Positions 43,156 to 62,615 of a stretch of 64,000 nucleotides of DNA are shown here, piece after piece (position 1 is the stretch's first letter; the number at the start of each line of letters is the position of its first letter). The stretch comes from Candidatus Gastranaerophilales bacterium. GTDB lineage: Bacteria; Cyanobacteriota; Vampirovibrionia; Gastranaerophilales; Gastranaerophilaceae. The stretch lies in contig CALVEL010000008.1 of NCBI GenBank assembly GCA_944326565.1, forward strand, positions 2,003 through 66,002. The letters are read 5' to 3'. Position numbers and translations under genes: made by a program. The notes under the pieces were generated by a model. That model was not told the origin of the DNA. It saw nothing but the letters and a program-made list of their open reading frames with translations, and searched no databases.

Positions 43156-43272
43156 ATATTTTAAAAGCAAAAAATACAACATAATGAAGTTGTGTTGTAT
43201 TTTGAGGGTAAATATATGTGGGTAAGGGTGAATGAATTTTTGCAGGCGGAAGTATATTCTGAACATTGCTGA

Positions 43273-43330
43273 AATTTTTGAACATTTTTTGAACGCTGTT
43301 TAAATGTCGTTTAAACGGTGTTTAAATTTT
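43273..43330. repeat. left arm of the imperfect inverted repeat bracketing the recombinase-BREX segment
   Basis: 2x TTTTTGAAC followed by 3x TTTAAA at 11-12 bp phasing. 43273-43305 matches the reverse complement of 59325-59357 at 29 of 33 positions without gaps. Confidence 0.8.
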
Positions 43331-43396
43331 GTGTCATTCGACTTTACTTTTTATAGGGAAGAAGCAATCATTGTCTGTGATTAAGCGAGTTTAAAA

Positions 43397-43936
43397 ATGA
43401 ATGTAGTACAACCTATAAAAAAGCTGGAAGATATTCAAAAGATTAAAAAATATTTGGTAAAAAAGACAAGAGATGCACTGCTTTTTAGTTTCGGTATAAA
43501 TACGGGACTCAGAATATCTGATATATTATCGCTTGATATTGGGGATGTAAAAGGCAGAGATTATATTGAAATTAGAGAGAAAAAGACAAATAAGTATAAG
43601 AAATTTCCGCTTAATAGGTTTTTAAAAGAGGAGATTAATTTATTTGTAGAGGGTTTGGCGAGTGAGCAACCGCTTTTTTATACACAAAAACATTGCAGGC
43701 TTGATAGAGCACAGGCGTATAGAATTTTGAATAAGGCAGCACAAGCTGTTGGGGTGAAGGAAAGAATCGGAACACATACACTGAGAAAGACATTCGGGTA
43801 TCATCATTATAAAAAATATAATGATATAGTACTCCTGCAAAAAATCTTTAACCACTCCTCACCATCAGTAACGCTTCGCTACATCGGCATCGAACAAGAC
43901 ACAATCGATGAAAGCTACATGAATTTTTATCTGTAG
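43397..43936 (+). CDS. small tyrosine recombinase (catalytic domain only, 179 aa)
   Basis: All catalytic residues are readable: GLRISD (Arg), KTNKYKKF (Lys), GTHTLRKT (HxxR), NHSSP (His), LRYIG (Tyr). The size resembles FimB/FimE-type invertases rather than phage integrases. Confidence 0.85.
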   Translation: MNVVQPIKKLEDIQKIKKYLVKKTRDALLFSFGINTGLRISDILSLDIGDVKGRDYIEIREKKTNKYKKFPLNRFLKEEINLFVEGLASEQPLFYTQKHCRLDRAQAYRILNKAAQAVGVKERIGTHTLRKTFGYHHYKKYNDIVLLQKIFNHSSPSVTLRYIGIEQDTIDESYMNFYL

Positions 43937-43969
43937 AAATGTTATAGTGGATAATAGACGTAAAAATAA

Positions 43970-44380
43970 TTATTTATAGCTTCCGATTTTTCTGCCGTAT
44001 TTGTCGTATTCGGTAATTCTACCAGATGAGTCTTTTTTGAATGAACCTACTTTTTGACCGTATTTATTGTATTTTGTAGTTACCCCATTAGAATTTGTTT
44101 TGTAACTACCAGTTTTCTGTCCATACTTATCATAGGAATTATATCCAGAGGAAGTCTTTTTATAACTTCCAGTTTTTTGACCGTACTTGTCATATTTATT
44201 ATAGCCAGAGGAAGTTTCCTTGTATGTGCCAGTTTTAGAACCATATCTGTCATAAGAATTGTAGCCTGAAGTTGTTTGCCTGTAAGAACCTGTCTTTTGA
44301 CCATACCTATCATAGGAAGTAACTGCAAAAGCAACATTTGCAAAGAATAACATCAACAATAAAACTAAAAATTTCTTCAT
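43970..44380 (-). CDS. secreted tandem-repeat protein (six ~20-aa YDKYGQKTGSYK units)
   Basis: Start at MKKFLVLLLMLFFANVAFA (44380) with an AAAGGAG RBS. Repeats are SYDRYGQKTGSYRQTTSGYN / SYDRYGSKTGTYKETSSGYN / KYDKYGQKTGSYKKTSSGYN, and so on. Confidence 0.7.
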   Translation of the reverse strand: MKKFLVLLLMLFFANVAFAVTSYDRYGQKTGSYRQTTSGYNSYDRYGSKTGTYKETSSGYNKYDKYGQKTGSYKKTSSGYNSYDKYGQKTGSYKTNSNGVTTKYNKYGQKVGSFKKDSSGRITEYDKYGRKIGSYK

Positions 44381-44431
44381 ACACAACTCCTTTATAATCA
44401 TAACGAAATAAGGCTGAAAATTGTTCAAATA

Positions 44432-44629
44432 TTAATATTTTTCATCTTCATCATCATATTCATAGTTAGACCATTTTTCTCTTTCTAAAGCTTTTCTGTC
44501 ATATTTAGAATCTTCCATTTCATCCCATCCAGATTCGTACATATTCGCCATTTCTTGGTCTCTAGCCTTATTTCTGTACTTTCTATTTTGATTACCAGAA
44601 TCCCCAAATAAAAACTCAAATAATCCCAT
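44432..44629 (-). CDS. small acidic hypothetical protein (65 aa)
   Basis: ATG at 44629 preceded by GAGGTG. Sequence MGLFEFLFGDSGNQ...YEYDDEDEKY. No motif recognised. Confidence 0.45.
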   Translation of the reverse strand: MGLFEFLFGDSGNQNRKYRNKARDQEMANMYESGWDEMEDSKYDRKALEREKWSNYEYDDEDEKY

Positions 44630-44760
44630 AAACACCTCAAATTATAATTTGTTACTTTTGTAGTATAGCACAAAACTTTGAACAATTTACTTGTTATTTG
44701 ATTTATTAAGTAATACGCTAAAAATGTTAAAAACAGGCATGTTTGTAGTAAGATTATACT

Positions 44761-45381
44761 ATGGTTAAACGAGATGTTTGTAATTCTGTTTCTAAAGAAT
44801 ATAGTGCTAGGATGACTGGAAATCAATTTCTTTATCCAGAGTTTAAGGTTGCAGTTAAATTACTACAAGAAGGCTTAAGCAAAAAAGAAGCAACCGATAA
44901 AATTATTAATGAGAATTTATTTGAATATCGTTCTTTTAAGGCTATAAACAAACATATTGGTGCTGTATGGGAAAGAGCAAACTATTTAGATGACTATTTG
45001 ATTGAAGTGCTATTAACTGAACCTAATGAAATAGGAAGACTTATTAATTTTTATGCAATTTTAAAATATGACAGATTATTTCTTGAATTTATGGAAGAAG
45101 TCTTAATAGATAAAGTGTTTTCAAGACAAATGGAAGTTTCTAAATCTGATATATCCAACTATTTTTCGATTAAAGCAGAACAGAGTGAAACTGTGGCTAA
45201 CTTTAAAGAAACAACATTAAAAAGGCTTAGATTAGCGTATTTTGAGATTCTAAGTGGAGCTGGATATATAGGAACAAATAGAGATAATGCAGAATTAACA
45301 ATCCCTCTTGGTATATACCAGATTACTAATCATTTAGAAGAAATTGGTGATAAAAGGTATGCAAAAGCAATGTTAGGATAA
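44761..45381 (+). CDS. brxA: BREX protein BrxA (DUF1819)
   Basis: YSARMTGNQFLYPEFKVAVKLLQEGLSKKEATDKIINENLFEYRS fits the recalled DUF1819 pattern. It is the first gene of the six-gene BREX order. Confidence 0.85.
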   Translation: MVKRDVCNSVSKEYSARMTGNQFLYPEFKVAVKLLQEGLSKKEATDKIINENLFEYRSFKAINKHIGAVWERANYLDDYLIEVLLTEPNEIGRLINFYAILKYDRLFLEFMEEVLIDKVFSRQMEVSKSDISNYFSIKAEQSETVANFKETTLKRLRLAYFEILSGAGYIGTNRDNAELTIPLGIYQITNHLEEIGDKRYAKAMLG

Positions 45382-45384
45382 GTA

Positions 45385-45984
45385 ATGGAACTTAGAGCAA
45401 GACTGGATAAAATTAAAGCAATAATTGAACAGGATTCTTTTTTCAATCAACAATCGTTGGGTGGAGAGTTAAATTTTCATATCTTTGATTATGAACCTTC
45501 AGATGAACTAATTGTAAGAAGATATATCAAGGATTTTGTAAGCAGTTATTCTTATGCCAATTCAAAGATTAAACCTATAGAATTTGATTTATTTGAGATG
45601 TTATTAAAAATCCTAACTGATAAAACTGCTGGTAGTAAAACTTATCTTGATTTAGCAATAGAAACTGAAGAAAGACAAGGAACAGAAAGTCTTATTAATA
45701 CTCTTAGAGGGGTTATTAATATAGAAGAATTTGTAAATATGATAAAAAAAGAGCTAGGAGATAGTAATCTTGTTATTTTATCTGGTGTAGGAAAGGTGTA
45801 TCCTTTGGTAAGGTCGCATAATGTCTTAAATAATCTTCATGCAGTTTTAGATAAGATTCCAGTTATTATGTTCTATCCTGGTACATACGACCAAAAAGAA
45901 TTAAGGCTATTTAAAGGTTCAAACTTTGATGGCTTAAAAGATGATAATTATTACAGAGCATTTAGGCTTGTTGCAAATGAGTAA
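45385..45984 (+). CDS. brxB: BREX protein BrxB (DUF1788)
   Basis: 199 aa with FHIFDYEPSDELIVRRYI, as recalled for DUF1788. Lies between brxA and brxC with a 3-nt gap. Confidence 0.85.
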   Translation: MELRARLDKIKAIIEQDSFFNQQSLGGELNFHIFDYEPSDELIVRRYIKDFVSSYSYANSKIKPIEFDLFEMLLKILTDKTAGSKTYLDLAIETEERQGTESLINTLRGVINIEEFVNMIKKELGDSNLVILSGVGKVYPLVRSHNVLNNLHAVLDKIPVIMFYPGTYDQKELRLFKGSNFDGLKDDNYYRAFRLVANE

Positions 45985-45994
45985 AGGTGTAGTT

Positions 45995-48900
45995 ATGAAG
46001 CTAAGAGAATTATTTGAGAAAGATATTAATAGGAACATTAATGGTGTTGTTAAAGTTGAGCAAGTTGATGACGAAGCTATTATTTATCAAGAATTGGACG
46101 AATTTGTCGTTACAAAAGAACTTTCTAAGCATTTTAGCACTTTTTATAGTAATTATAAAAACTCATTTGAAGAAAGAACTGATAAAATCGGAGTATGGAT
46201 TTCTGGTTTCTTTGGTTCTGGTAAATCTCATTTTTTAAAGATGCTATCATATCTACTTGCCAACAAAGAAGTAAAAGGTAAAAAAACAATAGAATTCTTT
46301 GAAGGGAAATCTAATATAGATGATTGGACTTTTGCTGATATGAAATTAGCTACATCTGTTCCTACAGAAACTATTTTGTTCAACATTGATTCTAAAAGTT
46401 CAAAAGATACAAAACAAAGAAAAGATGGCATTGTTGAAGTCTTTTTAAAGGTCTTTAACGAATCTCAGGGTTACTCTGCAAACTACCCTAAACTTGCAGA
46501 TATTGAAAGATATCTTGATAAAAATGGAAAATACGAAGAATTTAAACAAATTATAACCTCAGAAAGTGGTGTATCTTGGGAAGAAGCATCTAATGCAGTT
46601 GGTTTCTTTAAAGACTTCTTTATAAAGGCTTATGTTCAAGTTACAGGGACAACAGAACAAAGTACACAAGACTTATTTAAAGATGTTGTTGAAGATTCAG
46701 GGATTACACCAGAAGGGTTTGCAAAGCTAATAAAAGAATATCTTGAAAGTAAAGGTAGTAAGAATCGAATTATTTTCTTGGTCGATGAAATTGGGCAATT
46801 TATAAGCGATAATACAAACCTTATGCTTAGTTTACAGACAGTTGTTGAAAACTTGGGTACTACGTGTAATGGAAGAGCTTGGGTAATGGTAACATCTCAA
46901 GAAGCAATAGATTCTATAACAAAAGAACGTTTCAGGGACCAAGATTTCTCAAAAATCCAAGGCAGATTTGATACAAAATTAAGTTTATCTGGTTCAAACA
47001 CTGATGAAGTTATCAAACGAAGATTATTAGAAAAGAAACCAGATGCAAGAACTCTTCTTTCTAATTATTACAACGAACAAGAAAAGATTTTGGCAAATCT
47101 AATCACCTTTTCCAGTCAAACTTCCGGCATGAAAATGTATGAAAATTCGGGCGATTTTGTTGATTGTTATCCATTTGTCCCATATCAATTCAAGTTGTTA
47201 CAAAGTGTGTTTACAGAGTTAAGAAACTTTTCTCATGCCGGGGCTCACTTAGCTTCAGGGGAGCGTTCTATGCTTAATGCATTCCACACAGCGTTAAAAG
47301 AGTATGGGGACAAAGAGATTACAGAATTAGTTCCATTCAATGTTTTTTATTCTACGATTCAAACCTTTATAGATACAGATATTGTCAGAATAATTGCACA
47401 AGCAAAAGAGGGTAATCCAGATATAGAAGATTTTGATATTGAAGTCTTAACTGTTTTATTCTTGATTAAATACATTAAAGAAGTTCCTTGTGATGTAGAA
47501 AATATTGCAACATTAATGATATCAAATATTAATGAAAGCAAAAATGCACTAAAATCCAAAATAGAAGGAGCTTTAACAAGATTAAAACAAGCTACATTAA
47601 TACAACAAAATGGAGAAGAATATTCATTCTTAACAAACGAAGAACAAGATGTTACAAGAGGTATAAAAAACACTCAGATTGATTCTAGCGATGTGTTAAA
47701 TGAAGTCTATAGAAATATATATGAAGAAATTTATACTAAAAAGTCAATAACTCCATATCCTCAAGGACAGTCTTATTATTTTGTAAGAAAAGTTGATGAT
47801 GTAGTAAGAGGAAGCCAAGCAGAAGATATAGAAGTTAAATTTATCACTTCTATGAACTCTGATTATAAATTCAGCGAATCTGAGCTAAAAATGAAGTTTC
47901 TTGCAGGAAATACATTATTTATCAAATTGAATGAAAACGGTTACCTACAAGAACTTGAAACTATCTTAAAAACAGATAAGTATATCAAGCAAAAAAGCAG
48001 TGTAAAACAGTCTGAAATGCAGGATATGATATTAAAAAACAGAGGTGCTGAATTAATAGAACGCAAGAAAAGGGTGAAAACTTTATTAGAACAAGCTATT
48101 CTTGAATCTACTTTCTACACAAACGGTCAGATTATGGAAGTTAGTGCAACAAGTGCTGCTGCAAAGATTGAAAATGCTTTGAAACAAATTGTAGAAAATA
48201 CATATACGAACCTTCATTTTATCCAAGAAAGAGTTAGGGATGAAAAAGAAATCCATGCAAAACTCATTGCTCCTCAAGGTAAATTGGATGAAAGAAACAA
48301 AAAAGCTCTTGATGATGTTTTAGCATTTATTCAACTAAATAACTCGATGAGTTGCACTGTTACAATGCAGGGATTAAAACAACAATATACAAGAAAACCT
48401 TTTGGTTGGTCTATAAATGATATTGCAGGTGTTGTAGCAGATTTAGCTGTTAAAGGAGACATTTCTATTCTCTATAATGGTGTTCAATGCAATTATCAGG
48501 ATTATAATACAGTAAAATATTTGACAAATGACAGAGAAATTCAAAGCACTGTAATCAAATTGAAAGAAAAAATAGATAGTGCAAAAATCCAGCAAGTAAT
48601 AGCAATAGCACAAGAACTATTTGAAAAACAAGACTTTGTAGATGATGGAGAAAAACTTGCAAATTCAATAAGAGAAAATCTTCAAAATATGATTGGAGAT
48701 TTACAAGAGCTTAATGGAAGACATAATAACCCCAAATATCCTAAAAAGACTGTTATTGAACTTGGTCTTTCTACATTAAAAGAGCTTAAGAATGAGCCAG
48801 ATGTAAACGGATTATTTGATTTATTGATAAAGCAAAAGGATAATTTATTAACTTGGAAACAAGAATATAAACTCCTAAAATCATTCTTTAATACTCAAGT

Positions 48901-49561
48901 TGGTATTTTTGATGAATCATTGAAAATATATGACAGAGTAAAAAGAAATGAAGTTTATTTAACAACTTTTGAATCAGAAGAGGTTGCTAAATTAAATGAA
49001 CTAATTTCTAAACTTGAATCGATAATAGATTCTCCTGAACCATATTCTATGATTAAAGCTCTTCCTGTCTTAAATTCGGATATAACTTCTATTGTTAATA
49101 ATGTATTAGAAGATTATAAACAGGCATTAGGAGAAGTTATAAGTGATTTAGCTCATTATTTAGCAGAAGAAGCATCCAAACAGGGGCTTGAATGTGAAAG
49201 ATATAGCAACTTATTCAAGATTAATGTTACTGATTTGTATGAAAGAGCAACTGATTTTGGAGTGTTAAAGGCTATTGAAGAAAAAGCAAAATTATATTAT
49301 GAAAAACTTTTGAAACAAATTTCAGAAGATAGCATTGCGAAAAAGAATTTAGAATTACAACAACTAACAGGTACAGAAGAACATCCAGACTCTGAACCAA
49401 TGATTCAGAAAGAATTAGTATTCGTAAATCCTACAAATGTTGTTCAGAGTATGCAAATTCTTGAAACGGAAGAAGATGTTGATAACTATATCAACAAACT
49501 ATCAGAAGAGTTGAAAAACAGAATCAGGAACAATAAACGTATTAAACTCCAAGGGGGCTAG
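45995..49561 (+). CDS. brxC: BREX P-loop ATPase BrxC
   Basis: N-terminus MKLRELFEKDINRNINGVVKVEQVDD...ELDEFVVTKEL and P-loop GFFGSGKSHFLKML. About 1190 aa. ATG at 45995 has an AAAGGTG RBS. Confidence 0.9.
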   Translation: MKLRELFEKDINRNINGVVKVEQVDDEAIIYQELDEFVVTKELSKHFSTFYSNYKNSFEERTDKIGVWISGFFGSGKSHFLKMLSYLLANKEVKGKKTIEFFEGKSNIDDWTFADMKLATSVPTETILFNIDSKSSKDTKQRKDGIVEVFLKVFNESQGYSANYPKLADIERYLDKNGKYEEFKQIITSESGVSWEEASNAVGFFKDFFIKAYVQVTGTTEQSTQDLFKDVVEDSGITPEGFAKLIKEYLESKGSKNRIIFLVDEIGQFISDNTNLMLSLQTVVENLGTTCNGRAWVMVTSQEAIDSITKERFRDQDFSKIQGRFDTKLSLSGSNTDEVIKRRLLEKKPDARTLLSNYYNEQEKILANLITFSSQTSGMKMYENSGDFVDCYPFVPYQFKLLQSVFTELRNFSHAGAHLASGERSMLNAFHTALKEYGDKEITELVPFNVFYSTIQTFIDTDIVRIIAQAKEGNPDIEDFDIEVLTVLFLIKYIKEVPCDVENIATLMISNINESKNALKSKIEGALTRLKQATLIQQNGEEYSFLTNEEQDVTRGIKNTQIDSSDVLNEVYRNIYEEIYTKKSITPYPQGQSYYFVRKVDDVVRGSQAEDIEVKFITSMNSDYKFSESELKMKFLAGNTLFIKLNENGYLQELETILKTDKYIKQKSSVKQSEMQDMILKNRGAELIERKKRVKTLLEQAILESTFYTNGQIMEVSATSAAAKIENALKQIVENTYTNLHFIQERVRDEKEIHAKLIAPQGKLDERNKKALDDVLAFIQLNNSMSCTVTMQGLKQQYTRKPFGWSINDIAGVVADLAVKGDISILYNGVQCNYQDYNTVKYLTNDREIQSTVIKLKEKIDSAKIQQVIAIAQELFEKQDFVDDGEKLANSIRENLQNMIGDLQELNGRHNNPKYPKKTVIELGLSTLKELKNEPDVNGLFDLLIKQKDNLLTWKQEYKLLKSFFNTQVGIFDESLKIYDRVKRNEVYLTTFESEEVAKLNELISKLESIIDSPEPYSMIKALPVLNSDITSIVNNVLEDYKQALGEVISDLAHYLAEEASKQGLECERYSNLFKINVTDLYERATDFGVLKAIEEKAKLYYEKLLKQISEDSIAKKNLELQQLTGTEEHPDSEPMIQKELVFVNPTNVVQSMQILETEEDVDNYINKLSEELKNRIRNNKRIKLQGG

Positions 49562-49649
49562 GGGTAAATGGTGTAAATAGGAGTAACCATTATAGAATAA
49601 ACTTAATCCCTAAAATATTGGAACTTTTCAAACTATAAAGGAAGTATTG

Positions 49650-52600
49650 ATGACAGAACTATTAGAAAAAGAAATAACATTGGATAAATCAGCACTAAAA
49701 GACTTTGCAATAAAAGCAAGAAGAAAACTTAAAGAAAGAGTTGAGCTTCAAGCAAAACTGATGGGATTTTATGAAGATAATAGAGCTGTCAATTATGAGT
49801 TTGAAGACGACAGACAAGTGAAAATAAATGGAGAGTTCTTTAGCAAAAAACAAGTTGAGACCTTACAAAGAGAAATTAAGTCAAAAGGTTATGAAAACTT
49901 GATTGATGAAGTTGCATATACTTGGTTCAACAGATTCATCGCTCTATATTATATGGAAGTCAATGGATATAGCGAAAATAATTTTAATATTATTTCAAAT
50001 ATCGATAACCTTAACCAATTTGCAGTATCTGTTTCATCACAATTGAATGATGAAGAAAAACAAACTGTTATATCAGCTGTTCAAAATAATAATCAGGATG
50101 TAATTTTTAAGACATTGCTAATTCATCAATGTAATGTGATGAACAAAAAACTTCCATTCTTGTTTGAGCAAATCCAAGACTATACAGAATTATTATTCCC
50201 TCAAGGGATGAATAGTGCTGATTCTGTAATAAAAGAAATGCTATCTCTTGATAAATCCAACTGGCAAGTTGTAGAAATTATCGGCTGGCTTTATCAGTAT
50301 TATATTTCAGAAGCAAAAGAAATACTTGATTATGAATTAAAAAATAAAAAAAATCGTAAAGTGCAAAAAGATGATATGCCAGCTAAAACTCAAATATTTA
50401 CTCCTAAATGGATAGTAAAATATATGGTTGAAAACTCAGTTGGTAAAATGTGGCTTGAAGCTCGTCCTAATAAAGAATTACAGTCTAAATTTAAGTACTA
50501 TTTGGAATCAGCTGATCAAGAAGATGATGTTAAAGAAAAACTAAAAGAAATTATAAATAAAAACATCTCTCCAGAGGATATAAAAGTTCTTGACCCTGCT
50601 TGTGGTTCTGGGCATATTTTGGTAACAGCTTTTGAAGTTTTATACCAAATATACAAATCTGCTGGATATATGAAAGATGAGATTGCTAAATTGATTCTGA
50701 CAAAAAATTTATATGGACTTGATATTTGTAATAGAGCTTCTCAATTAGCTCAACTTGCTTTAATTATGAAAGCTAGAGAATATGACAAAGATATTTCATC
50801 TAAGGTAGTTGAATTAAATATAACTTCTATTCAAGATACCAATTGGTTTGATTCAAGAGTAAAAGAATGCCTAATGAATGGTGTAACTAACCAATTACTT
50901 GCACAATCACAAATAGATTTATTGCAAAAAACATTCAAAGACGCTAAAGAATACGGTTCAATTCTTGATGTAAAAGATTTTGATTTCAATTTTTGGGAAG
51001 AAAGATTATATGCTGTGCAAACTCTAAATATGGGACTTTTATATTCTGATATTACAGAACAATTAAGAGACAAATTACCTCAATTAATCAAACAAGCTCG
51101 TATCATGCAACAAAAATATGAATGCGTTATTACAAATCCTCCGTATTTAGGTAGTAAATTCTTTGATGCAAAATTAACAGAATTCATGACAAAAAAATAT
51201 CCTAATTCAAAATCGGATACGTGTGTAGCATTTATAGAAAAGGCTTTGCAAATGACAGCTAAAAATTCATATTGTGCTCTAGTTGTTATGCAATCATGGA
51301 TGTTTTTATCATCATTTGAAAAGTTTAGAGAACACTTATTAAATAATTCGACAATTCAAACAATGACACATATGGGTAATAACGTCATGAAAATAGCTTT
51401 TGGCACATGTGCAACAGTATGGCAAAAAGCTGTAATGCCAAAATATAAAGCTGTATATTCATGGGTAGAAAACGATGATATTACTGAAAAAGATATTCCA
51501 TATACATTCCCTATTAAAGATAATGGGCGATATAACATAGTTGCTCAAAATGGATTCCACTCAATACCTGGGTCGCCGATTGCATACTGGGCTAGCGATA
51601 GAGTTAGAGAGATATTTAGAAATAACAAGCCTTTAAATGAATTTGTTGAAGCTTTTCAAGGAATTATAACAGGTGATAATAATTATTTTTTAAGATTATG
51701 GTATGAACTTGAAAATAATAAGATTTCATTTAATAAACAAAAAATGGAAGAAGTTAATATATCTGAACAATATTGGATTCCTTATAACAAAGGAGGCGAA
51801 TTTAGGAAATATTATGGTAATCAAGATTATGTCATAAATTGGAAAGATGAAGGTGATGGACTTGTTAGAAGCCGAAACAAATCTTCTGAATATTATTTGC
51901 AAGAATATGTTTCTTGGACATATATTACATCTACAACTCCCACAACAAGATATTATCCCAAAGGTTTTTTATGGGATGTAGCTGGTTCTGGTTTCTTTGA
52001 TAAAAATAAAAATAACAAGAATTTGTATTATTTACAAAGCTTATTGGGTTCAAACGTAGGAAGATATATTATTTATTTAATTAATCCAACAATAAATTTT
52101 CAAGTCGAAAATATATTATTATTTCCAACGAAATTTCCGAATAAAGAAATTCAAGATAAAATTAATTCATTAGTTGCAGAAAACATTCAAATATCAAAAG
52201 ACGATTGGGATAGTTTTGAAACATCTTGGGATTTTGAACAACATCCTTTGTTGAGATTCTCTAATAGAAATAAAGGTCTTGTTGACTACAAAAATATTCA
52301 TAAAGTTGAACCTATTACAGCAGGAGATAAAGTTCAAGATTGTTTCAATAAATGGAAGGAATACAAACAAGAACAATTCAACAAACTAAAAGCTAATGAA
52401 GAAGAATTGAACAGATTGTTTATTGAAATTTATGGACTTCAAGATGAAATGACTCCAGAGGTCGATGATAAAGATATTACAGTCGCTTTAGCAGATGAAT
52501 TAAGGGATATAAAATCACTTCTATCTTATGCTATTGGCTGTATGTTTGGCAGATATTCTCTTGATGAAAAAGGTTTAATATTTGCTGGTGGAGAGTTTGA

Positions 52601-53207
52601 CAAAAGTAAATATCAAACCTTAGAAGTTGATGAAGATGGTATTTTACCAATTCTTTCTGATACTTGGTTTGATGATGATATTATAGAAGAGTTCAAAAGG
52701 TTCTTGAAAAAAGCATTTGGCGAATTATATTTCAATGAGAATATGCAATATATAGCAGATGTTTTAGGTCGCAAAGGTTCTGAGAGTGCAGAAGATAGAA
52801 TTAGAACATATTTCTTGAAAGATTTCTACAAAGACCATTTGCAAATCTACAAAAAACGTCCTATTTATTGGATGTTTACAAGCGGCAAAGAAAAAGGGTT
52901 CAACGCTCTAATATATCTGCACAGGTATGACAAAACAACATTATCAAGAATAAGAAAAGATTATTTGCACGAGTTCCAAAACAAATTGGATAATGCAATA
53001 CAAAGAGCAGAAAACGAAGGAAATGTTAAATTAACATCACTATATTCAAAATATCAAACAGAATGCCTTGAATTTGATAGAAAGATTAAGGATTTAGCTG
53101 ATGAGCAGATAGAGCTAGACCTTGATGACGGTGTAAAAGTTAATTATGCAAAATTCAAAGGACTGCTCGAATCAGAAAAAGATGTAATAGGAAAGGATAA
53201 AGGCTAA
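49650..53207 (+). CDS. pglX: BREX N6-adenine DNA methyltransferase PglX
   Basis: SAM-binding motif I VLDPACGSGHIL and catalytic motif IV VITNPPYLGSK. About 1185 aa, in the correct position after brxC. Confidence 0.9.
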   Translation: MTELLEKEITLDKSALKDFAIKARRKLKERVELQAKLMGFYEDNRAVNYEFEDDRQVKINGEFFSKKQVETLQREIKSKGYENLIDEVAYTWFNRFIALYYMEVNGYSENNFNIISNIDNLNQFAVSVSSQLNDEEKQTVISAVQNNNQDVIFKTLLIHQCNVMNKKLPFLFEQIQDYTELLFPQGMNSADSVIKEMLSLDKSNWQVVEIIGWLYQYYISEAKEILDYELKNKKNRKVQKDDMPAKTQIFTPKWIVKYMVENSVGKMWLEARPNKELQSKFKYYLESADQEDDVKEKLKEIINKNISPEDIKVLDPACGSGHILVTAFEVLYQIYKSAGYMKDEIAKLILTKNLYGLDICNRASQLAQLALIMKAREYDKDISSKVVELNITSIQDTNWFDSRVKECLMNGVTNQLLAQSQIDLLQKTFKDAKEYGSILDVKDFDFNFWEERLYAVQTLNMGLLYSDITEQLRDKLPQLIKQARIMQQKYECVITNPPYLGSKFFDAKLTEFMTKKYPNSKSDTCVAFIEKALQMTAKNSYCALVVMQSWMFLSSFEKFREHLLNNSTIQTMTHMGNNVMKIAFGTCATVWQKAVMPKYKAVYSWVENDDITEKDIPYTFPIKDNGRYNIVAQNGFHSIPGSPIAYWASDRVREIFRNNKPLNEFVEAFQGIITGDNNYFLRLWYELENNKISFNKQKMEEVNISEQYWIPYNKGGEFRKYYGNQDYVINWKDEGDGLVRSRNKSSEYYLQEYVSWTYITSTTPTTRYYPKGFLWDVAGSGFFDKNKNNKNLYYLQSLLGSNVGRYIIYLINPTINFQVENILLFPTKFPNKEIQDKINSLVAENIQISKDDWDSFETSWDFEQHPLLRFSNRNKGLVDYKNIHKVEPITAGDKVQDCFNKWKEYKQEQFNKLKANEEELNRLFIEIYGLQDEMTPEVDDKDITVALADELRDIKSLLSYAIGCMFGRYSLDEKGLIFAGGEFDKSKYQTLEVDEDGILPILSDTWFDDDIIEEFKRFLKKAFGELYFNENMQYIADVLGRKGSESAEDRIRTYFLKDFYKDHLQIYKKRPIYWMFTSGKEKGFNALIYLHRYDKTTLSRIRKDYLHEFQNKLDNAIQRAENEGNVKLTSLYSKYQTECLEFDRKIKDLADEQIELDLDDGVKVNYAKFKGLLESEKDVIGKDKG

Positions 53208-53213
53208 AGATTT

Positions 53214-53714
53214 ATGCCAAATTCAGAACGAGAAACTATAGAAAATTTAATAAGAGTGCTAAATTGTAATGAAACCGTTACGGTCTTTAAGAGAAAACGT
53301 TCATTTATATTTAATTTTGCTATGATTTGGAATCTTTTTGAAGATAGATGTATGGATAATTTTGCCCAAATTTCTAAGGTTGATGATTTTGTTAATACTT
53401 TGCCTTCCGATTTAAATCTGGATGTAAATATAATTTTTGATTATTTCAAAGATAGGTATAAAGTAGTTAATAATATATACAATATAGAAAACTTATTATG
53501 GAGACGTAATGAAAATACTTACAGAAATTTTGTAATAGAAAAATTCAGAGATACTCAATGCTCTCATCAAGATAAAATAAAAGCTGTTTTATATATTATT
53601 TTTAGACTAAGAAATAATCTTTTTCATGGGGAAAAAGATATTGCAATAATAAATGAACAAAAACGAACTTTTGTTCTTGTGAACAAATTTTTGATGGATT
53701 TAATTACTTTATAG
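53214..53714 (+). CDS. HEPN-type (Rx4H) small protein inserted between pglX and pglZ
   Basis: 166 aa, starting 6 nt after the pglX stop and ending 11 nt before pglZ. C-terminal helix LYIIFRLRNNLFHGEKD contains R133-x4-H138 in the RNxxxHG context typical of HEPN RNase/Abi families. Confidence 0.6.
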   Translation: MPNSERETIENLIRVLNCNETVTVFKRKRSFIFNFAMIWNLFEDRCMDNFAQISKVDDFVNTLPSDLNLDVNIIFDYFKDRYKVVNNIYNIENLLWRRNENTYRNFVIEKFRDTQCSHQDKIKAVLYIIFRLRNNLFHGEKDIAIINEQKRTFVLVNKFLMDLITL

Positions 53715-53725
53715 GTAAATAGATA

Positions 53726-56236
53726 ATGGAACAAGATAAATTACAAGAATTAATATTGAAACATTTTAACAAGCAAGAAAGACAAATTGTATTCTGGTAT
53801 GATGAAACTGGAGAAAATGAAGAAAAACTGGATTCATTATCTCTTCCTAATATTAAAATACACAAGCTCACAAAGAATAATAATCTTTTGACAAAAAAGT
53901 TGCTTGAAAAAGATGATACGACATCAAATTATCTTATTTATGCACCTTTTGAGATGCCTCCTATTGAAGATAACTGGTTTATTGATACACAACTATATTC
54001 ACAAGTTCTATCTGTTGATGAGGTGGATAGTTTATGCTCCGAATTTGAAGTCTATGATATAGCAATTAAAAACCTGTTCAAAAACCATATCAAATTCTTT
54101 AATAACAAAAAAAGAATAAATAATTTCAAAACTCTGTTGCCATCTAATAAATCAGTAGAAAATTTCTACTTAGCAATGTTTGGAACGCTTGTCGAGTGTA
54201 AAATATTTGATAAATACAAAATTATTCAAACATTTATTATAAAAGAAATTATTGATAAAAATACTCCATCAAAGGAATTTGCAAAGTATGGATTGGAAGA
54301 TAAGTTTTGGGAATTAATAGAAAAAGAATTTGGCTACTTGGGAGAACGAGAAGCAAAATATCTATTAGCAGGAATTGTCTTTAAAAAACTGCAACAACAA
54401 CTCAGAGGTTCAAGTTTCCCTGATACTTATAAAAAATATATTAGTAAGAATATGAAAGAAGCTGAATGCAATTCATTCTTAGAAAGTTGGTTTCGTGATA
54501 CAGAGCTTATGCCTTATTATAAAGAATTGATAGAAGAGTTTGAAAGAGATGATTTTAAAATAGATGAGAATATTACAGACTGGTCTGATATATTACAAAG
54601 CGAACCTGAATTCCAAACTCTTAGAGCATATGATAGATTCCTTGTTAATTATTTGATTGCTCAATTTGATTCGTTAAAAGATGAAGATAAAATACTTATT
54701 GAAAAAAGAAAAAGAACACTATTCTATAATGAGTATGAAAATGTTTATAATGCTCTTTTCTGGGCTTTGGAATTAAGTTTGTTAGTGAAAAACACTCAGA
54801 TTCCAGAACAGAAAATTGAAACATTTATTAAGAGCTATGCTCAAAGTTATTACAAAATAGATAAAGCATATAGAAAATTCTATTACTATTGTGGATTATT
54901 AAACGATAGAAAACTTGACTCTGTTAAAGATAAAGTTGAGAAATTGTATGTAAACAAATATCTTGATGATATTAATTTGAAATTCTCTAACCAAGTAAAA
55001 GAAATTGCCCCTAACTGGACTTTTTCAAATCTTCCTATGCAAAAAGATTTCTATTACAATGAAGTACGTTCTTCTAAAAACAAACTTGTTGTTATAATTT
55101 CTGATGCATTACGATATGAAATTGCAGAAGAATTAAGCGAGGCAATTAGAAGTAACTACTCAATTAAAGCCGATGTAAAACTGGATTGTATGGTCGCTTC
55201 AATCCCTTCTTATACAAGATTAGGGATGGCTTCATTGCTTCCTCATAAAGAAGTTTCTATGAATAATAAAGCTGAAATTGTTGTAGATGGAGTAGTTGCA
55301 AAGGATTCTGCATCAAGAGAAAAAATATTGCAAGCACATAATCCAAACTCAAAAGTTCTGATTTTAAGTGATTTAGAAGATATGTCAAGAGATGATTTAA
55401 GAGCTCTATTTAGTGGATTAGAGATTGCTTATATTTATCATGATGACATTGATAAAGCTGGAGAACATAATGAAAAAGATGTGTTTAATGCTGCTGAAAA
55501 AACTGTAAAAATACTTTCAGAAAAAATTAAGTTTTTGTTCAATAATTCTTTGTGTAGCAATGTAATTATTACCGCAGACCACGGTTTCTTATATCAATAT
55601 AGCGATTTAGAAGAGCATCAAAAGATTACAATAGGCACTATTGATTCTATTGAGTGTAAAAAAAGGTATATTATTGGAACTTCTCCAGTAGAAAAGCAGG
55701 GTATCGTTGATTTTGATATGAATTATATATTCAAAAATTCAGCTTTAAAATTGTCGTTGCCATGCAATATCAATAGATTTAAAACTTCTGGAGCTGGCAT
55801 AAATTACGTTCATGGAGGAGCTAGTCCTCAAGAAATAGTATTACCTCTTTTGAGAGTTAAGCAAAACCGTAAACAAGAAATTAAGAAAGTAAAACTTTCA
55901 CTAGAAAACTCTTCTCGAAAGATTACTAATAATAAGTTTACATTATCATTCTTGCAAAAAGAAAGCATATCTGAGCTTGTTAAACCAAGAGTATTCAGCG
56001 TTTCTTTATGGGATGAAGAAAATAATATGCAAGTATCTAATAAACTTATTATAGATGCAAATATTAGTTCTGATAAAATGGAAGATAGAATATTCAAAAA
56101 AGTATTAGAACTAAAAAGTTTTGATGCAGATAAAAACAAAGATTATTACTTGATTATAAAAGATGTAGATGAGGTTGGTGAACCATATGCAAAAATCCCA
56201 TTTACAATAAATTTAATGTTCCAGTCAGATTTTTAA
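53726..56236 (+). CDS. pglZ: BREX alkaline-phosphatase-superfamily protein PglZ
   Basis: VVIISDALRYEIAEEL and VIITADHGFLY motifs of the PglZ domain. 836 aa. Confidence 0.9.
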   Translation: MEQDKLQELILKHFNKQERQIVFWYDETGENEEKLDSLSLPNIKIHKLTKNNNLLTKKLLEKDDTTSNYLIYAPFEMPPIEDNWFIDTQLYSQVLSVDEVDSLCSEFEVYDIAIKNLFKNHIKFFNNKKRINNFKTLLPSNKSVENFYLAMFGTLVECKIFDKYKIIQTFIIKEIIDKNTPSKEFAKYGLEDKFWELIEKEFGYLGEREAKYLLAGIVFKKLQQQLRGSSFPDTYKKYISKNMKEAECNSFLESWFRDTELMPYYKELIEEFERDDFKIDENITDWSDILQSEPEFQTLRAYDRFLVNYLIAQFDSLKDEDKILIEKRKRTLFYNEYENVYNALFWALELSLLVKNTQIPEQKIETFIKSYAQSYYKIDKAYRKFYYYCGLLNDRKLDSVKDKVEKLYVNKYLDDINLKFSNQVKEIAPNWTFSNLPMQKDFYYNEVRSSKNKLVVIISDALRYEIAEELSEAIRSNYSIKADVKLDCMVASIPSYTRLGMASLLPHKEVSMNNKAEIVVDGVVAKDSASREKILQAHNPNSKVLILSDLEDMSRDDLRALFSGLEIAYIYHDDIDKAGEHNEKDVFNAAEKTVKILSEKIKFLFNNSLCSNVIITADHGFLYQYSDLEEHQKITIGTIDSIECKKRYIIGTSPVEKQGIVDFDMNYIFKNSALKLSLPCNINRFKTSGAGINYVHGGASPQEIVLPLLRVKQNRKQEIKKVKLSLENSSRKITNNKFTLSFLQKESISELVKPRVFSVSLWDEENNMQVSNKLIIDANISSDKMEDRIFKKVLELKSFDADKNKDYYLIIKDVDEVGEPYAKIPFTINLMFQSDF

Positions 56237-56248
56237 GGCAGGTGAAAA

Positions 56249-58297
56249 ATGAACAATTTAGATAAGAAAATTACAGAAACATTTGAAGGTTGTGTTGTAA
56301 GGAAAGACTTAGTAAAAGAAGTTAAAGGGAATGCTATTGTTCCTTCATACGTCTTAGAATATTTACTTGGACAATATTGTGCATCAAGTGATGAAGATGT
56401 AATTAAATCAGGAATTGAATCAGTAAAAGAAATTCTAGCAAAACACTATGTTAATAGAAACGAAGCAGAATATATTAAATCTACTATTAAAGAAAAAGGA
56501 CGCTACAAAGTAATTGATAAGGTAAGTGTTCAATTTAATGAAAAAACAGATTCTTATATTGCTACATTTTCAAATCTAGGAATAACAGGGATTAATGTCC
56601 CATCTGAAATAGCTTATAAAAAGTATCCAAGATTATTGGTTTCAGGAATTTGGTGTCTAGCAGACCTTGAATATCAATATACTGAAGATAAAAAGGCTTG
56701 CCCTTGGTTGTTGCAGAACATCAAGCCTATTCAGCTTGCACAGTTTGATTTTGAAGATTTTAAAGCTAAAAGAGCAATGTTTTCTACTGATGAATGGATT
56801 GATTTACTTATGCAAAGCATAGGTTTTAATCCAGAAATGCTAAGCAGAAGAAAGAAATTATTACAGCTTGTTAGACTTATTCCATACTGTGAAAGAAATT
56901 ATAATTTTATAGAACTTGGACCTAAAGGAACTGGTAAGAGTCACATATACACAGAATTTTCACCTCATGGAACTTTGATTTCTGGGGGCGAAGTTTCTGC
57001 TGCAAAATTATTTGTGAATAATTCAAGAAAACATGATATTGGTTTAGTTGGGTACTGGGATAATATTGCATTTGATGAGTTTGCAGGTAGCTCAAAGAAA
57101 GTTGATAAAGCTCTTGTTGATATAATGAAAGGTTATATGGCTAACAAGTCATTCTCTAGAGGCGTTGAAACACTAACGGCAGAAGCATCAATGACATTTA
57201 TTGGTAATACAAAGCACAATGTTCCTTATATGTTAAAACATTCTAATTTGTTTGAAGAATTACCTCCTCAATATTTAGATTCAGCATTTCTTGATAGAAT
57301 TCATTTCTATTTACCGGGATGGGAAGTTGATGTTACAAGACCAGAATTATTTACTACAAACTACGGTTTTGTTGTGGATTATTATTCAGAAGCTTTAAAA
57401 TGTCTAAGAAATTATGATTTTTCTAATGAATACAAGAAAGAATTTACTCTAGGAAATATTTCAGAACGTGATAGAACAGGTGTTATGAAGACATTCTCAG
57501 GGCTTATGAAGATTATTTATCCTGATAAAAAAGCTTCAACTGAAGAATTAGAAGAATTACTTAAATTTGCAATGGAAGGAAGAAAAAGGGTTAAAGACCA
57601 GATTTTAAGAATAGACTCGACTCTTCCACAAGTAGATTTTTCATATACAAGTAATTCTGGAGTCGAAGTTAAAGTAAAAACAACTGAAGAAATTCAATAT
57701 AAAGGATTATATAATGGAGAAATGGAAGACTCCGAAGACGAAGTTATGATAAGTTCTCCAGAAGTTGTTGAAGTAATAAATGATAGTTCTAAAGAAACTG
57801 CAACTAATGAAGAAGAAATTAAAGAACATCATTTTGTAATTGAAGAAAATCAAATTGGGGTTACGTTTGAAAAGCTGTTTGGAAGATTATTTAAAGGGGT
57901 AAAAAATATTGTTATTACTGACCCTTATATAAGAAATTTCTACCAAACTGTAAACTTAATGGAATTATTAGAAGTTGTAGATAAAGCGAAATCTGAAACA
58001 GATATTGTTACTGTTGAATTAATAACTTCTGCTGATGAATTTAATGAACAAATACAGCGTGAAAACTTAAATACCATAAGAGAATCTTGCTTACAAATGG
58101 GTATTGAATTTAGTTATCAATTCGATTCAAGTATTCATGCAAGAAGTATTGTTACTGATACTGGATGGAAAGTTTTATTAGATAGAGGACTTGATATATT
58201 CCAAAATTGTGAAAGAAAAGATGCATTTCAATTCACAACAAGATTACAAAAGTACAGACCTTGTAAAAAATTTGAGATAACATATTTGAGAACATAA
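56249..58297 (+). CDS. brxL: BrxL-type ATPase with a non-canonical C-terminal MIT_C/PLD-like domain
   Basis: The N-terminus FEGCVVRKDLVKEVKGNAIVPSYVLEYLLGQYCASSDEDVIKSG and P-loop LGPKGTGKSHIY match recalled BrxL. After an acidic linker, residues ~531-682 resemble the MITD1 C-terminal domain. I see no Lon S16-type GPSAG region. Confidence 0.8.
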   Translation: MNNLDKKITETFEGCVVRKDLVKEVKGNAIVPSYVLEYLLGQYCASSDEDVIKSGIESVKEILAKHYVNRNEAEYIKSTIKEKGRYKVIDKVSVQFNEKTDSYIATFSNLGITGINVPSEIAYKKYPRLLVSGIWCLADLEYQYTEDKKACPWLLQNIKPIQLAQFDFEDFKAKRAMFSTDEWIDLLMQSIGFNPEMLSRRKKLLQLVRLIPYCERNYNFIELGPKGTGKSHIYTEFSPHGTLISGGEVSAAKLFVNNSRKHDIGLVGYWDNIAFDEFAGSSKKVDKALVDIMKGYMANKSFSRGVETLTAEASMTFIGNTKHNVPYMLKHSNLFEELPPQYLDSAFLDRIHFYLPGWEVDVTRPELFTTNYGFVVDYYSEALKCLRNYDFSNEYKKEFTLGNISERDRTGVMKTFSGLMKIIYPDKKASTEELEELLKFAMEGRKRVKDQILRIDSTLPQVDFSYTSNSGVEVKVKTTEEIQYKGLYNGEMEDSEDEVMISSPEVVEVINDSSKETATNEEEIKEHHFVIEENQIGVTFEKLFGRLFKGVKNIVITDPYIRNFYQTVNLMELLEVVDKAKSETDIVTVELITSADEFNEQIQRENLNTIRESCLQMGIEFSYQFDSSIHARSIVTDTGWKVLLDRGLDIFQNCERKDAFQFTTRLQKYRPCKKFEITYLRT

Positions 58298-58303
58298 ATA
58301 TTT

Positions 58304-58984
58304 ATGGATACAAAAGAAGCATCAAAAAAATTTCAGAATGGGAATTGGCAAGATAACGCTATTTTGTCTAATGGATATTATAGTTGGGATATGATGGCGG
58401 ACGGTTATTTTAATGCTGCTAATATCTTAGTGGGAAGTACAATTTGCCCTGAGTTTATCAATGAGAAATATTTGTGTTGTAAAAATAAAGAAATTGGAGA
58501 ACCTTTATTTTCAACATGTAAAAACACCTTTATTTTTCCCATATTTTTCTTATATAGACATTATATTGAATTATCAATAAAAAAAGCTTACATAAGAATC
58601 AAGAAATGTAAGCTTGAAAATTCTAAAATTAAAGCTGAACATTCTCTAAGAATTTTGTTTAAAAATTTAAAAGACAATTATATGAATATGTATAATAGCA
58701 ATACGTATCAAATGTATAAAAATTTAGAATTTAAACAATTACGACGTAAGTTTCAGGAAATAGAACAGATTATACTTGAGTTCGATGCTATAGATAGTAC
58801 ATCTTTTAATTTTAGATATCCTATAGATAATAATGGTTGTCTTATCTTTAACAACAATGAAATAATTAATATAGAGAATCTAGCCGAAAAGATGCAGAAA
58901 ATTAGAGTTTTCTTTCAATACCTAGATATTGCTTTAGATGAAATTGAAGAAGTAAAAAATATTATACTAGATTATATTGAATAA
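58304..58984 (+). CDS. HEPN-like helical protein coupled to the end of the BREX operon
   Basis: Starts 6 nt after the brxL stop. FFLYRHYIELSIKKAYI...AEHSLRILFKNL...SFNFRYPID follows the classical HEPN layout (xxxxE..lK ... H.L..L ... RYP) as I recall it. There is no His 4-6 residues after the Arg. Confidence 0.45.
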   Translation: MDTKEASKKFQNGNWQDNAILSNGYYSWDMMADGYFNAANILVGSTICPEFINEKYLCCKNKEIGEPLFSTCKNTFIFPIFFLYRHYIELSIKKAYIRIKKCKLENSKIKAEHSLRILFKNLKDNYMNMYNSNTYQMYKNLEFKQLRRKFQEIEQIILEFDAIDSTSFNFRYPIDNNGCLIFNNNEIINIENLAEKMQKIRVFFQYLDIALDEIEEVKNIILDYIE

Positions 58985-59083
58985 ACAGATAAATTATTTA
59001 AATATAGTTAATAATATATTATATCTAAACTTGATGTTATCTAACTTTTGAGTGATGAATACGACACCTTAAAAGGAGGTCGT

Positions 59084-59308
59084 ATGAGTAACAGCAAGAA
59101 ATACAAGATTAAACAAAAAGATTTTAGGAAGTTAGAAAAATTAGCTGAGCGGATTTATAATATTGTCACTGTAATTGATTATTTTTGCAGGACACAACAA
59201 GAAATTGAAGAGCTGTATAATCTTACCCCAATTGTTGAATATTTAAGGAGAGATACTGATACGGTCAACGCATATTTTATAAATTATCCTGACAGTAAGA
59301 ATTTTTAA
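59084..59308 (+). CDS. small hypothetical protein (74 aa)
   Basis: ATG at 59084 has a strong RBS AAGGAGG. No motif recognised. Its last codons overlap the right inverted-repeat arm. Confidence 0.5.
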   Translation: MSNSKKYKIKQKDFRKLEKLAERIYNIVTVIDYFCRTQQEIEELYNLTPIVEYLRRDTDTVNAYFINYPDSKNF

Positions 59309-59357
59309 ATGGTATTTAATTCCTGTTTAAATACCGTTCAAAAAGTGTTCAAAAATT
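59301..59357. repeat. right arm of the imperfect inverted repeat bracketing the recombinase-BREX segment
   Basis: In reverse complement it reads AATTTTTGAACACTTTTTGAACGGTATTTAAACAGGAATTAAATACCATTTAAAAAT. Box order and phasing are the same as in the left arm, while the spacers between the TTAAA boxes have diverged. Confidence 0.8.
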
Positions 59358-59455
59358 GATTGTGTCTGAATGATACGTTTTGAAAGAGTTTGCTTGATAT
59401 TTTACTCATTAAGAGTAATGAATGTCATTGCTATAAATGAATATAAGGGGTAGCA

Positions 59456-59671
59456 ATGATTGAATTAGGCAAAAAATACAAACTTAAAAAGATTAAAGGC
59501 TTTGAAAACTCTGATAATGAGTATTACAAAGTAATTGGATTCTACACCTTCGACACCGTAATTTGCGAAAACGCTTGCAGAGAAAGATTTGTATTTATGA
59601 AAGAGTTTTTAATAGACCCACAAAAGCCTGATGATATCTATTCAGATTTAATACTTGAAAGGAATAAATAA
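59456..59671 (+). CDS. small hypothetical protein (71 aa)
   Basis: RBS AAGGGG. Its stop overlaps the next start (TAATG). Confidence 0.45.
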   Translation: MIELGKKYKLKKIKGFENSDNEYYKVIGFYTFDTVICENACRERFVFMKEFLIDPQKPDDIYSDLILERNK

Positions 59672-59880: not shown

Positions 59881-59965
59881 ACATATGGTAAAACTTGTGA
59901 GCCTGTAACTGAAATGGAACATAGCGAAATAAGTGTGAAAAATAAACTGGTTTAAAGACTACTAT

Positions 59966-62548: not shown

Positions 62549-62615
62549 AGAAATTATATTAGCATAAAATTTATATAAAACTTTTAGACTGAGGATTTTT
62601 AATAAACAATCATAT

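Follow-up and report, generated by a model that had tools for sequence, protein, structure and literature searches.

Inverted phased-box arrays at a probable defence-island hotspot that carries a type 1 BREX operon in Candidatus Gastranaerophilales

Why does a type 1 bacteriophage exclusion (BREX) operon lie between two inverted repeats, one of which adjoins the gene of a short tyrosine recombinase? The locus is located in a stretch of 64,000 nucleotides from Candidatus Gastranaerophilales bacterium (GenBank assembly GCA_944326565.1, contig CALVEL010000008.1, positions 2,003 to 66,002), which was analysed at its full length and is called the window in this text. An earlier note, made from the sequence of the window, had offered two answers: a transposon-like element with BREX as its cargo, or a recombinase-driven inversion of the entire defence operon. 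Related genomes point to neither of them. With a probability of roughly 0.55, we assume that the locus is a hotspot slot framed by conserved modules and that the two repeats (the arms, each an array of regularly spaced boxes) are protein-binding elements of this frame.

Constant frame and changing cargo

The window has a match in a 347-kb metagenome contig from the human gut. Its closest genomes are metagenome-assembled genomes of Candidatus Gastranaerophilales, a Melainabacteria lineage; L-numbers denote related loci or contigs that were fetched for comparison with the window. The 71-aa gene beyond the right arm (Table 1) was found in 22 contigs, and across these the block 59030-59945, comprising the small gene p74, the right arm and the 71-aa and 69-aa genes, is nearly identical, with varying DNA on either side. 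To the left of this block stand BREX in L004, L006, L008 and L009, a type I restriction-modification (R-M) system together with other genes in L005, a PLD-helicase with an MmeI-like (type IIG) enzyme in L007 and L010-12, and Dcm/Vsr with DUF6339 in L013. The right arm is identical or nearly so in contigs with BREX, PLD-helicase/IIG or Dcm/Vsr cargo. The left block has the order hipA-hipB-array-recombinase and is followed by a SIR2-helicase and a type I R-M system in L014-23; in other species-level genomes Hachiman, a type I R-M system, a type II methyltransferase or a QatA-like protein comes after the recombinase. At least eight alternative cargo types were found between the recombinase and the p74/71-aa module, and in L013, L025, L033, L034, L035 and L041 both ends are present on one contig and enclose cargo of approximately 6-10 kb.

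On the left, more than ten different cargos have the same limit, namely the base that directly follows the stop codon of the recombinase gene (43937). The right limit lies at approximately 59030-59060, upstream of or inside the p74 promoter and, in L037 and L041, at the ribosome-binding site; no single fixed base marks this junction. The replaced DNA, from 43937 to approximately 59030, stops short of the left arm by 0.6 kb and of the right arm by 0.3 kb. The BREX operon of L095 shares 89% DNA identity with that of the window and its BrxC 98% protein identity, whereas the adjoining recombinase is just 63% identical; no array was found upstream of the L095 recombinase.

Since the arms, the recombinase and p74 stay constant and the interior is replaced, they are best read as a frame and BREX as one interchangeable cargo. 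Judged by the genomes compared, the locus is a defence-island hotspot in the sense that the same flanking genes enclose different defence systems.

Mobile elements were also observed in the same slot. In the sister clade, L154:12591-16949 is a Mu-like transposable prophage (HTH_Tnp_Mu_2/DDE_2 transposase, AAA_22 ATPase, GemA) approximately 0.9 kb past the recombinase, with two small open reading frames (ORFs) between. Genes tniA-tniB of the Tn7/Tn5053-like type are present in L010:13343-16691, L052:12640-16905, L158:7644-12174 and L161; the third gene of these sets codes for an integrase SAM-like (core-binding) domain only and is the converse of the catalytic-domain-only recombinase. The arrays were considered as ends of such Tn7/Tn5053-like elements and this was rejected: the window does not contain the repeat ATGTCAAAnnnGCGATAC of these elements, and the segment between the arms is free of tni genes. 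A tRNA gene marks the end of related islands, which also contain a partial copy of a tRNA 3' end and repeats of the TTCCGAC..ATGTCAAAnnnGCGATAC type (L006:10935-10965 and 13695-13780; L008:10995-11075; L007:14865-14945); the window stops before this region. The tRNA copies and repeats of these islands are signs of serial integration by other elements.

Arms, recombinase and the reader of the boxes

Each arm consists of five boxes with a period of exactly 11 bp throughout. In the left arm TTTGAAC starts at 43277 and 43288, TTTAAAT at 43299, TTTAAAC at 43310 and TTTAAAT at 43321, and the right arm mirrors these at 59347-53, 59336-42, 59325-31, 59314-20 (ATTAAAT) and 59303-09. Within each arm the boxes are arranged head-to-tail without an inverted pair, and Tandem Repeats Finder called the left arm as a period-11 array. 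The earlier note had described a gapless inverted match at 29 of 33 positions (43273-43305 versus the reverse complement of 59325-59357) and two plus three boxes at about one helical turn, and both descriptions were reproduced. A repeat search scored the arm pair as 32 nt at 91%, alignment in register gave 43 identical positions out of 62, and the outer 23 bp of the two arms differ by one base.

Could the likeness of two AT-rich intergenic stretches be a matter of chance? The bare 29/33 match is marginal in this respect: an inverted match of at least 29/33 arose in 3 of 60 first-order Markov shuffles of 17 kb, and the G+C content of the window is 28%. The phased-box design is not chance: at least four of five TTTRAAY boxes at 11-bp phase are confined to the two arms within the 64 kb, and 30 shuffles did not yield the design once. 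The shuffled-sequence control named in the note therefore leaves the bare match weak and upholds the design. Moreover, dozens of genomes that represent several species-level lineages have both arms at the same place and with the same design, and from these comparative data we regard chance as already refuted and its remaining probability as negligible.

The boxes are retained and the spacers drift among 11 left-arm and 7 right-arm sequence variants, in agreement with the suggestion of the note that the arms look like protein-binding sites. Phased T(n)A(n) tracts are reportedly not intrinsically curved, unlike A(n)T(n) tracts (the A4T4 versus T4A4 rule, said to go back to Hagerman in 1986), and for phased T3A3 boxes protein binding is therefore favoured over static bending. 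Probably the arrays serve to bind a protein, and this could be a member of the recombinase family. A search for known RNA families in and near the arms gave none.

The recombinase gene starts 67 bp past the left arm. PF00589 spans residues 12-163 of the product (E = 3e-24; 86 bits versus a gathering cut-off of 27.1), and this catalytic domain is its sole domain. In an alignment of 16 sequences, with homologues of 62-91% identity, R39, K63/K66, H127, R130, H153 and Y162 are invariant, the catalytic roles being assigned by motif position and not by structure. This bears out the full R-K-HxxR-H-Y set that had been noted for the 179-aa protein. The top NCBIfam matches are C-terminal halves of Xer recombinases, each under its cut-off: the XerA model reached 88 bits versus a cut-off of 220 and aligned at its positions 101-263 of 263, and the XerC, XerD and XerS models were likewise under their cut-offs. 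Matches in the Protein Data Bank (XerC-like, XerH, XerA) also cover C-terminal domains only. The model of tyrosine-type DNA invertases, NF007371, gave a weak match (44 bits versus 222, E = 1.8e-11), the FimB/FimE-type model NF007370 24 bits versus 221, and the integron integrase models TIGR02249 and NF011946 41 bits versus 265 and 19 bits versus 435. The protein is a member of the tyrosine recombinase superfamily that fails every curated subfamily cut-off; the short, catalytic-domain-only build of FimB size, as described in the note, holds, and the model scores do not place the protein among the FimB/FimE invertases. The putative promoter in front of the gene (TTGTGT, TATAGG) is kept in all clade-A left arms, and a consensus promoter scan did not list 43329..43357, so that the recombinase promoter is a prediction by eye.

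Full-length relatives of approximately 50% identity belong to phrog_216 (E = 2e-57) and were found in 186 temperate phages and satellites of Firmicutes, including phi105, phIS3501, BtCS33 and phages of Listeria and Streptococcus. Their genes are placed directly after an ArpU-type late activator and before HNH/terminase packaging genes (e.g. L187:3501-4043, phIS3501). These phage recombinases have the same length as the protein of the window, and the search for box arrays near them found none. The literature searched describes no role for the short phage recombinases and nothing on this type of locus.

What might read the boxes? A single 11-6-11 palindrome, TTTTTGAACnn-N6-nnGTTCAAAAA, lies approximately 30 bp before the ATG of paralogous recombinase genes (L081:5274, L085:9941, L086:9940). 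Because TTTTTGAAC, one type of array box, is also the half-site of this dif-like palindrome, the recombinase family is the best candidate for the reader, which falls short of proof. A dif-like site of 28-30 bp, with two inverted arms of approximately 11 bp around 6-8 bp, was looked for in the window and not found. Among 78 recombinase genes, TTTTGAAC is fivefold enriched in the upstream 300 bp. The small protein p74 was considered as a Xis/Cox-like binder of the arrays and rejected: its AlphaFold2 model is one long helix (pLDDT 83) without a DNA-binding fold, and there were no family matches. p74 has 195 homologue clusters and is found together with the recombinase down to 51-67% identity.

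Arrays of this design vary in number and position. In the clade of at least 88% identity the left arm has two versions, the second of which consists of TTTGAAT plus four TTTAAA-type boxes and has only the box pattern in common with its right arm (L013, L034); in the 69-71% clade it has up to eight TTTAAAC boxes, and its start coincides with the stop codon of bcp, a housekeeping gene. The left array occurs alone in L051, where ogt directly follows p74, and the right array alone in L043, L057 and L188; the right array is decayed in L005 and L162. A third array is located past the junction module in L007-L012, and further arrays precede tniA in L158 (four boxes, approximately 150 bp away), ogt in L050, and GmrSD. 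The distance from array to start codon ranges from 0 to 147 bp. On the evidence of these loci, the arms are not an obligate pair.

An insert of approximately 165 bp (L014:9770-9935; also in L015-L023, L029, L030, L033, L035, L036 and L182) sits between the third and the last boxes of the left array and at this single position only. It has three strong hairpins with a minimum free energy of -57 kcal/mol versus -35 +/- 3.8 for shuffles (z = -5.8) and no Rfam match.

At least four TTTAAAC boxes at 11-bp phase are also present in 48 IMG/VR viral contigs (L104-L151; 20-57% G+C). Some of these viral arrays are located in or between tail-like genes (e.g. L132:9352-9390, L133:8663-8701), and several prophages have two different arrays. 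The viral arrays are genuine but stand in unrelated contexts; no link to the recombinase was found, and annotated phages gave no near match.

Weighing inversion, mobility and regulation

The reading that we prefer is the following. The arms would be copies of a lineage-specific cis-element of approximately 55 bp, with TTTTTGAAC-type boxes at one end and TTTAAA-type boxes at the other, that is found repeatedly where modules meet in the defence islands of gut Candidatus Gastranaerophilales. The left copy is the upstream region of the short Xer-like recombinase gene, and the right copy lies inverted between p74 and a block of small conserved genes. Homologous recombination within the conserved frame genes, following DNA transfer, is presumably the main route of cargo replacement, and the recombinase possibly assists at the stop-codon junction. 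The boxes would bind a protein, most likely of the recombinase family; next to the promoters that they adjoin, the arrays would serve as operator or accessory array rather than as crossover sites for inverting or moving the 16-kb segment.

Several observations weigh against this reading. More than ten cargos start at one and the same base, a sharper limit than would be expected from homologous recombination by itself and a hint of a site-specific step. No left array is present in the 73-75% clade, itself linked to hipBA, and the insert splits the left array in 14 fetched loci, where an intact array is not essential. Only 14 of the 78 recombinase loci have TTTTGAAC upstream. The arrays after the junction module and before tniA and ogt stand without an adjoining recombinase gene, and their binder could differ. 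Homology is lost within approximately 4 bp of the array edge at the inverted junction module of L158, and in L052 the unit of array plus p74 is flipped; array edges can therefore be points of rearrangement. The consensus assemblies from which the arms were taken are a further point, as will be seen in the following count.

The recombinase might flip the whole 16-kb recombinase-plus-BREX block between the arms, in the manner of fim but at far larger scale, as the earlier note had proposed for the operon. The inverted arms adjoin a FimB-sized recombinase with all catalytic residues, the outer 23 bp are almost the same, the invertase model NF007371 matches weakly and neighbouring modules are flipped in L052 and L158, all of which would fit. 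We classed arms by their outer and inner flanks (28 left and 15 right in the fetched loci, 4 left and 11 right in a scan of metagenome contigs): all flanks were parental, and chimeric arms, which would indicate the inverted state, amounted to 0 of 58 (32 left, 26 right) across independent samples and species, a count from consensus assemblies that rare inversion or excision could escape. The opposite orientation, which the note had advised to look for in relatives, was found in none of these arms. p74 lies on the recombinase strand in 14 of the 15 loci with both genes, and among the loci compared hipB was never parted from the recombinase by a flip. Tyrosine recombinases normally need an inverted pair of sites around a spacer, but neither arm has one, and the second-version left arms (L013, L034) match the right arm in TTTAAA boxes only; in further loci the arms are unpaired. 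A flip would presumably not switch expression either, since the segment includes the promoter region of BREX. We consider inversion of the block very unlikely. A smaller invertible segment, from ATTTTTGCAGG (43236-46) to CCTGCAAAAAAT (43834-45, inside the recombinase gene), was rejected as chance; the internal copy is lost in the L014 clade and the upstream copy is kept.

Alternatively, the arms could be the ends of a unit that integrates or transposes as a whole with its own recombinase, or the frame could be an integron-type platform on which the recombinase inserts and removes defence cassettes site-specifically. The exchanged cargo directly past the recombinase with a left junction always at the same base speaks for this, as do the break of L158 at the array edge, the start of the array at the bcp stop codon in the 69-71% clade, where array edge and island edge coincide, the same BREX operon behind a different recombinase paralogue, and related islands that abut a tRNA gene with partial tRNA copies. 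The arms, however, persist when the cargo changes, the cargo limits lie inside them and the right junction is not one fixed base. The outer flanks of both arms are conserved between species, which would not be expected of independent insertions. TCTGAA, which the note had placed correctly at 43258-63 and 59365-70 and offered as a possible target-site duplication, was rejected as such: elsewhere the left copy reads TTTTGAA, GTTTGAA or TTTTTGAAT (L013, L025, L026, L034) and it also fits a gapped outward extension of the repeat (GTAT.ATTC.GA.CA), while the right copy is part of an invariant block. A direct repeat or core common to the left and right cargo junctions was not above background in 6 loci (Fisher p = 0.34). 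In the contigs fetched, neither an empty frame, as suggested by the note for relatives, nor a circular junction or a cassette-end motif was found, and in the sister clade (bcp|island|ogt) the recombinase is present in all contigs that carry the looked-up Bcp, without an empty site. A mobile unit or platform of this kind appears rather unlikely to us. A more specific form, an undescribed platform in which the recombinase loads on phased TTTTTGAAC/TTTAAAC units at both slot ends and exchanges whole defence systems at its own stop codon, is speculative and distinctly unlikely. Neither phase-switching of BREX nor its carriage by a transposon of its own is supported by the loci compared; of the interpretation in the note, the protein-binding look, the short recombinase and the variable interior persist.

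A purely regulatory role is a possible, though unlikely, alternative. The arrays would then be promoter-associated and bound by another DNA-binding protein unrelated to recombination, and a portable module of array plus promoter would express the first gene in each of several island modules. In the left arm (TTTAAAT/TTTGTGT, the slash marking the box end) and in the third array (TTTAAAA/TTTTGCAA) a -35-like TTG directly adjoins the last box, the right arm, read inward, continues with TTCTTA, 16 nt and TAAAAT, and arrays occur singly and precede the recombinase gene, GmrSD, tniA and ogt. On the other hand no candidate regulator was found, p74 being a single helix and the 71-aa and 69-aa proteins having no family match; the distance between array and start codon is variable, the right arm is directed towards the 3' end of p74 instead of a gene start, and TTTTTGAAC is shared with the dif-like palindrome beside paralogous recombinase genes.

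Other features of the window, known systems and meaning

The features of the locus are listed in Table 1.

Table 1 Features of the locus (window positions; strand + or -, a point where none applies).
Feature	Position	Strand	Remarks
hipA	41721-42827	-	Pfam Couple_hipA, HipA_C
hipB	42820-43098	-	Pfam HTH_3; with hipA a toxin-antitoxin pair
Hairpin AATACAACATAATGAAGTTGTGTTGTATTT	43173..43202	.	Left edge of conserved recombinase module
Left arm	43273..43330	+	Five 11-bp phased boxes; abuts -35 of putative recombinase promoter
Putative recombinase promoter	43329..43357	+	TTGTGT, 17 nt, TATAGG; read by eye
Tyrosine recombinase, 179 aa	43397..43936	+	PF00589; stop codon is left limit of variable cargo
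Two small genes (152-aa tandem-repeat, 67-aa)	43970..44635	-	Between recombinase and brxA; function unknown
Type 1 BREX cargo	44761..58984	+	Pfam, PADLOC
brxA	44761-45381	+	
brxB	45385-45984	+	
brxC	45941-49561	+	
pglX	49647-53207	+	
166-aa gene	53214-53714	+	
pglZ	53726-56236	+	
brxL	56249-58297	+	
226-aa gene	58304-58984	+	
Right cargo limit and p74 promoter region	59030..59060	+	TTGA, ~17-nt cargo-specific spacer, GAGTGATGAAT
p74, lineage-specific 74-aa protein	59084..59308	+	Stop codon overlaps innermost right-arm box
Right arm	59300..59357	-	Same five-box array, inverted orientation
Junction module	59456..59945	+	71-aa gene, 69-aa gene, cut-off start of 77-aa gene
71-aa gene	59456-59671	+	
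69-aa gene	59671-59880	+	
Next cargo	59966..63863	-	860-aa SF1 helicase-like (MkoA/MkoC-like, ProA-like matches) and 415-aa McrC-like; NCBIfam, PADLOC

The type 1 BREX system is complete and forms one operon with BrxA, BrxB, BrxC, PglX, PglZ and BrxL. The evidence comprises Pfam BrxA and BrxB, domains of BrxC, PglX and PglZ, and PADLOC matches to PglX (1320 bits) and BrxL (1046 bits); the statement of the note that a whole BREX locus lies between the arms was correct, all six core genes being found. L004, L006, L008, L009, L049 and L095 have this operon too, with another specificity part in PglX. A middle-to-C-terminal stretch of pglX (51347-52330) is the sole strongly divergent part of BREX operons that are otherwise 90-97% identical, as would be expected for a swapped target-recognition region. 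In some loci extra small ORFs are located 3' of pglX.

On the left side, hipBA is the usual neighbour of the recombinase in most loci of the clade of at least 73% identity, and palindromic operator-like TAGATAATATATTAT sites are located at 43098 and 43138. In loci without hipBA (L024, L025, L037) homology to the window begins at the hairpin. The 152-aa gene is often found directly past the recombinase, also in loci with other cargo; its product (43970-44428) has a signal-peptide-like start and the motif SYDRYGQKTGSY and is encoded with 60-bp tandem repeats. On the right side, the p74 leader (59062-59083) contains a possible hairpin, ACGACACC-TTAAAA-GGAGGTCGT, that would bury the Shine-Dalgarno sequence, and the leader of the L051 orthologue (L051:7975-8005) has a compensatory change, ACAACC...GGTTGT; the hairpin suggests translational control. 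Searches of Pfam, NCBIfam and PHROG gave no family match for the p74, 71-aa and 69-aa proteins, and the 77-aa protein matches phrog_34337. The junction module has variable cargo on either side in other genomes. The cargo at 59966-63863 replaces the 77-aa gene and the third array of related contigs, other contigs have different genes in its place, and the pair of helicase-like and McrC-like genes may be another defence system.

In its behaviour the locus comes nearest to a defence-island hotspot. Hotspots framed by conserved genes are known from E. coli, as integration hotspots of the pan-genome, and from Pseudomonas aeruginosa, as core defence hotspots. The fixed frame, the alternative defence systems, the recombinase at one edge and the variable DNA around small conserved blocks are common to them and to the present locus. 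The frame here, however, is not made of housekeeping genes but of the 179-aa recombinase, the lineage-specific p74 and small phage-like genes; the inverted 11-bp phased arrays are undescribed for those hotspots, and the host belongs to an uncultured Melainabacteria lineage.

Known fim-type switches flip a few hundred bp between inverted repeats of approximately 9-30 bp, and both orientations are present in populations. The locus shares with these switches and with gut invertons a short tyrosine recombinase without arm-binding domain next to inverted repeats, and the weak match to an invertase model; it differs by arms that are 16 kb apart, by head-to-tail boxes, by a single orientation in the 58 arms and by a score of 44 bits versus 222. 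Half-sites around a crossover spacer that flank a promoter segment, as in fim, were not found, the 16-kb segment including the upstream region of the operon. XerS and XerH have dif sites beside their genes, a situation similar to the 11-6-11 palindrome of the paralogues. The likeness to Xer/dif extends to the best model matches, which are Xer catalytic domains, and to the pdif modules of Acinetobacter plasmids, blocks of accessory genes bracketed by inverted Xer sites (PMC6863613). In contrast to Xer systems, the arms lack an 11-6-11 core and the protein lacks an N-terminal core-binding domain. Integrons likewise have a tyrosine recombinase at the edge of a slot with alternative cargo; here the cargo consists of whole multi-gene systems past the 3' end of the recombinase gene, as opposed to an attI site upstream of the gene, there are no attC-like ends and no junction repeat, and the integrase models stay far under their cut-offs. 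A comparable arrangement of boxes is that of TnpI of Tn4430 and Tn5401, a tyrosine recombinase which binds several short motif copies just upstream of its own gene, some of them direct repeats with accessory and autoregulatory function; the two inverted ends of the transposon are further binding sites in Tn5401. These elements move by a DDE transposase and their site IRS has an inverted core pair, whereas no transposase lies between the arms and no core pair is present here.

What is new here is the frame itself, a minimal recombinase with an unusual phased-box array that marks a slot for multiple defence systems in a gut lineage without cultured members. Defence hotspots are known, and the entry and exit of their cargo are mostly unexplained; the same-base left junction together with the arrays makes the exchange of defence cargo directly testable. 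If the arrays are not recombinase sites, the locus would be an ordinary hotspot with an unexplained regulatory element. If they are, it would provide a compact, testable model for the site-specific exchange of whole defence systems and a first function for a large family of 179-aa recombinases, common among gut Gastranaerophilales as well as temperate Firmicutes phages. Should even the platform with loading at both slot ends prove true, Melainabacteria would possess an integron-like system that handles multi-gene defence cargo, and the related short recombinases of Firmicutes phages might act similarly.

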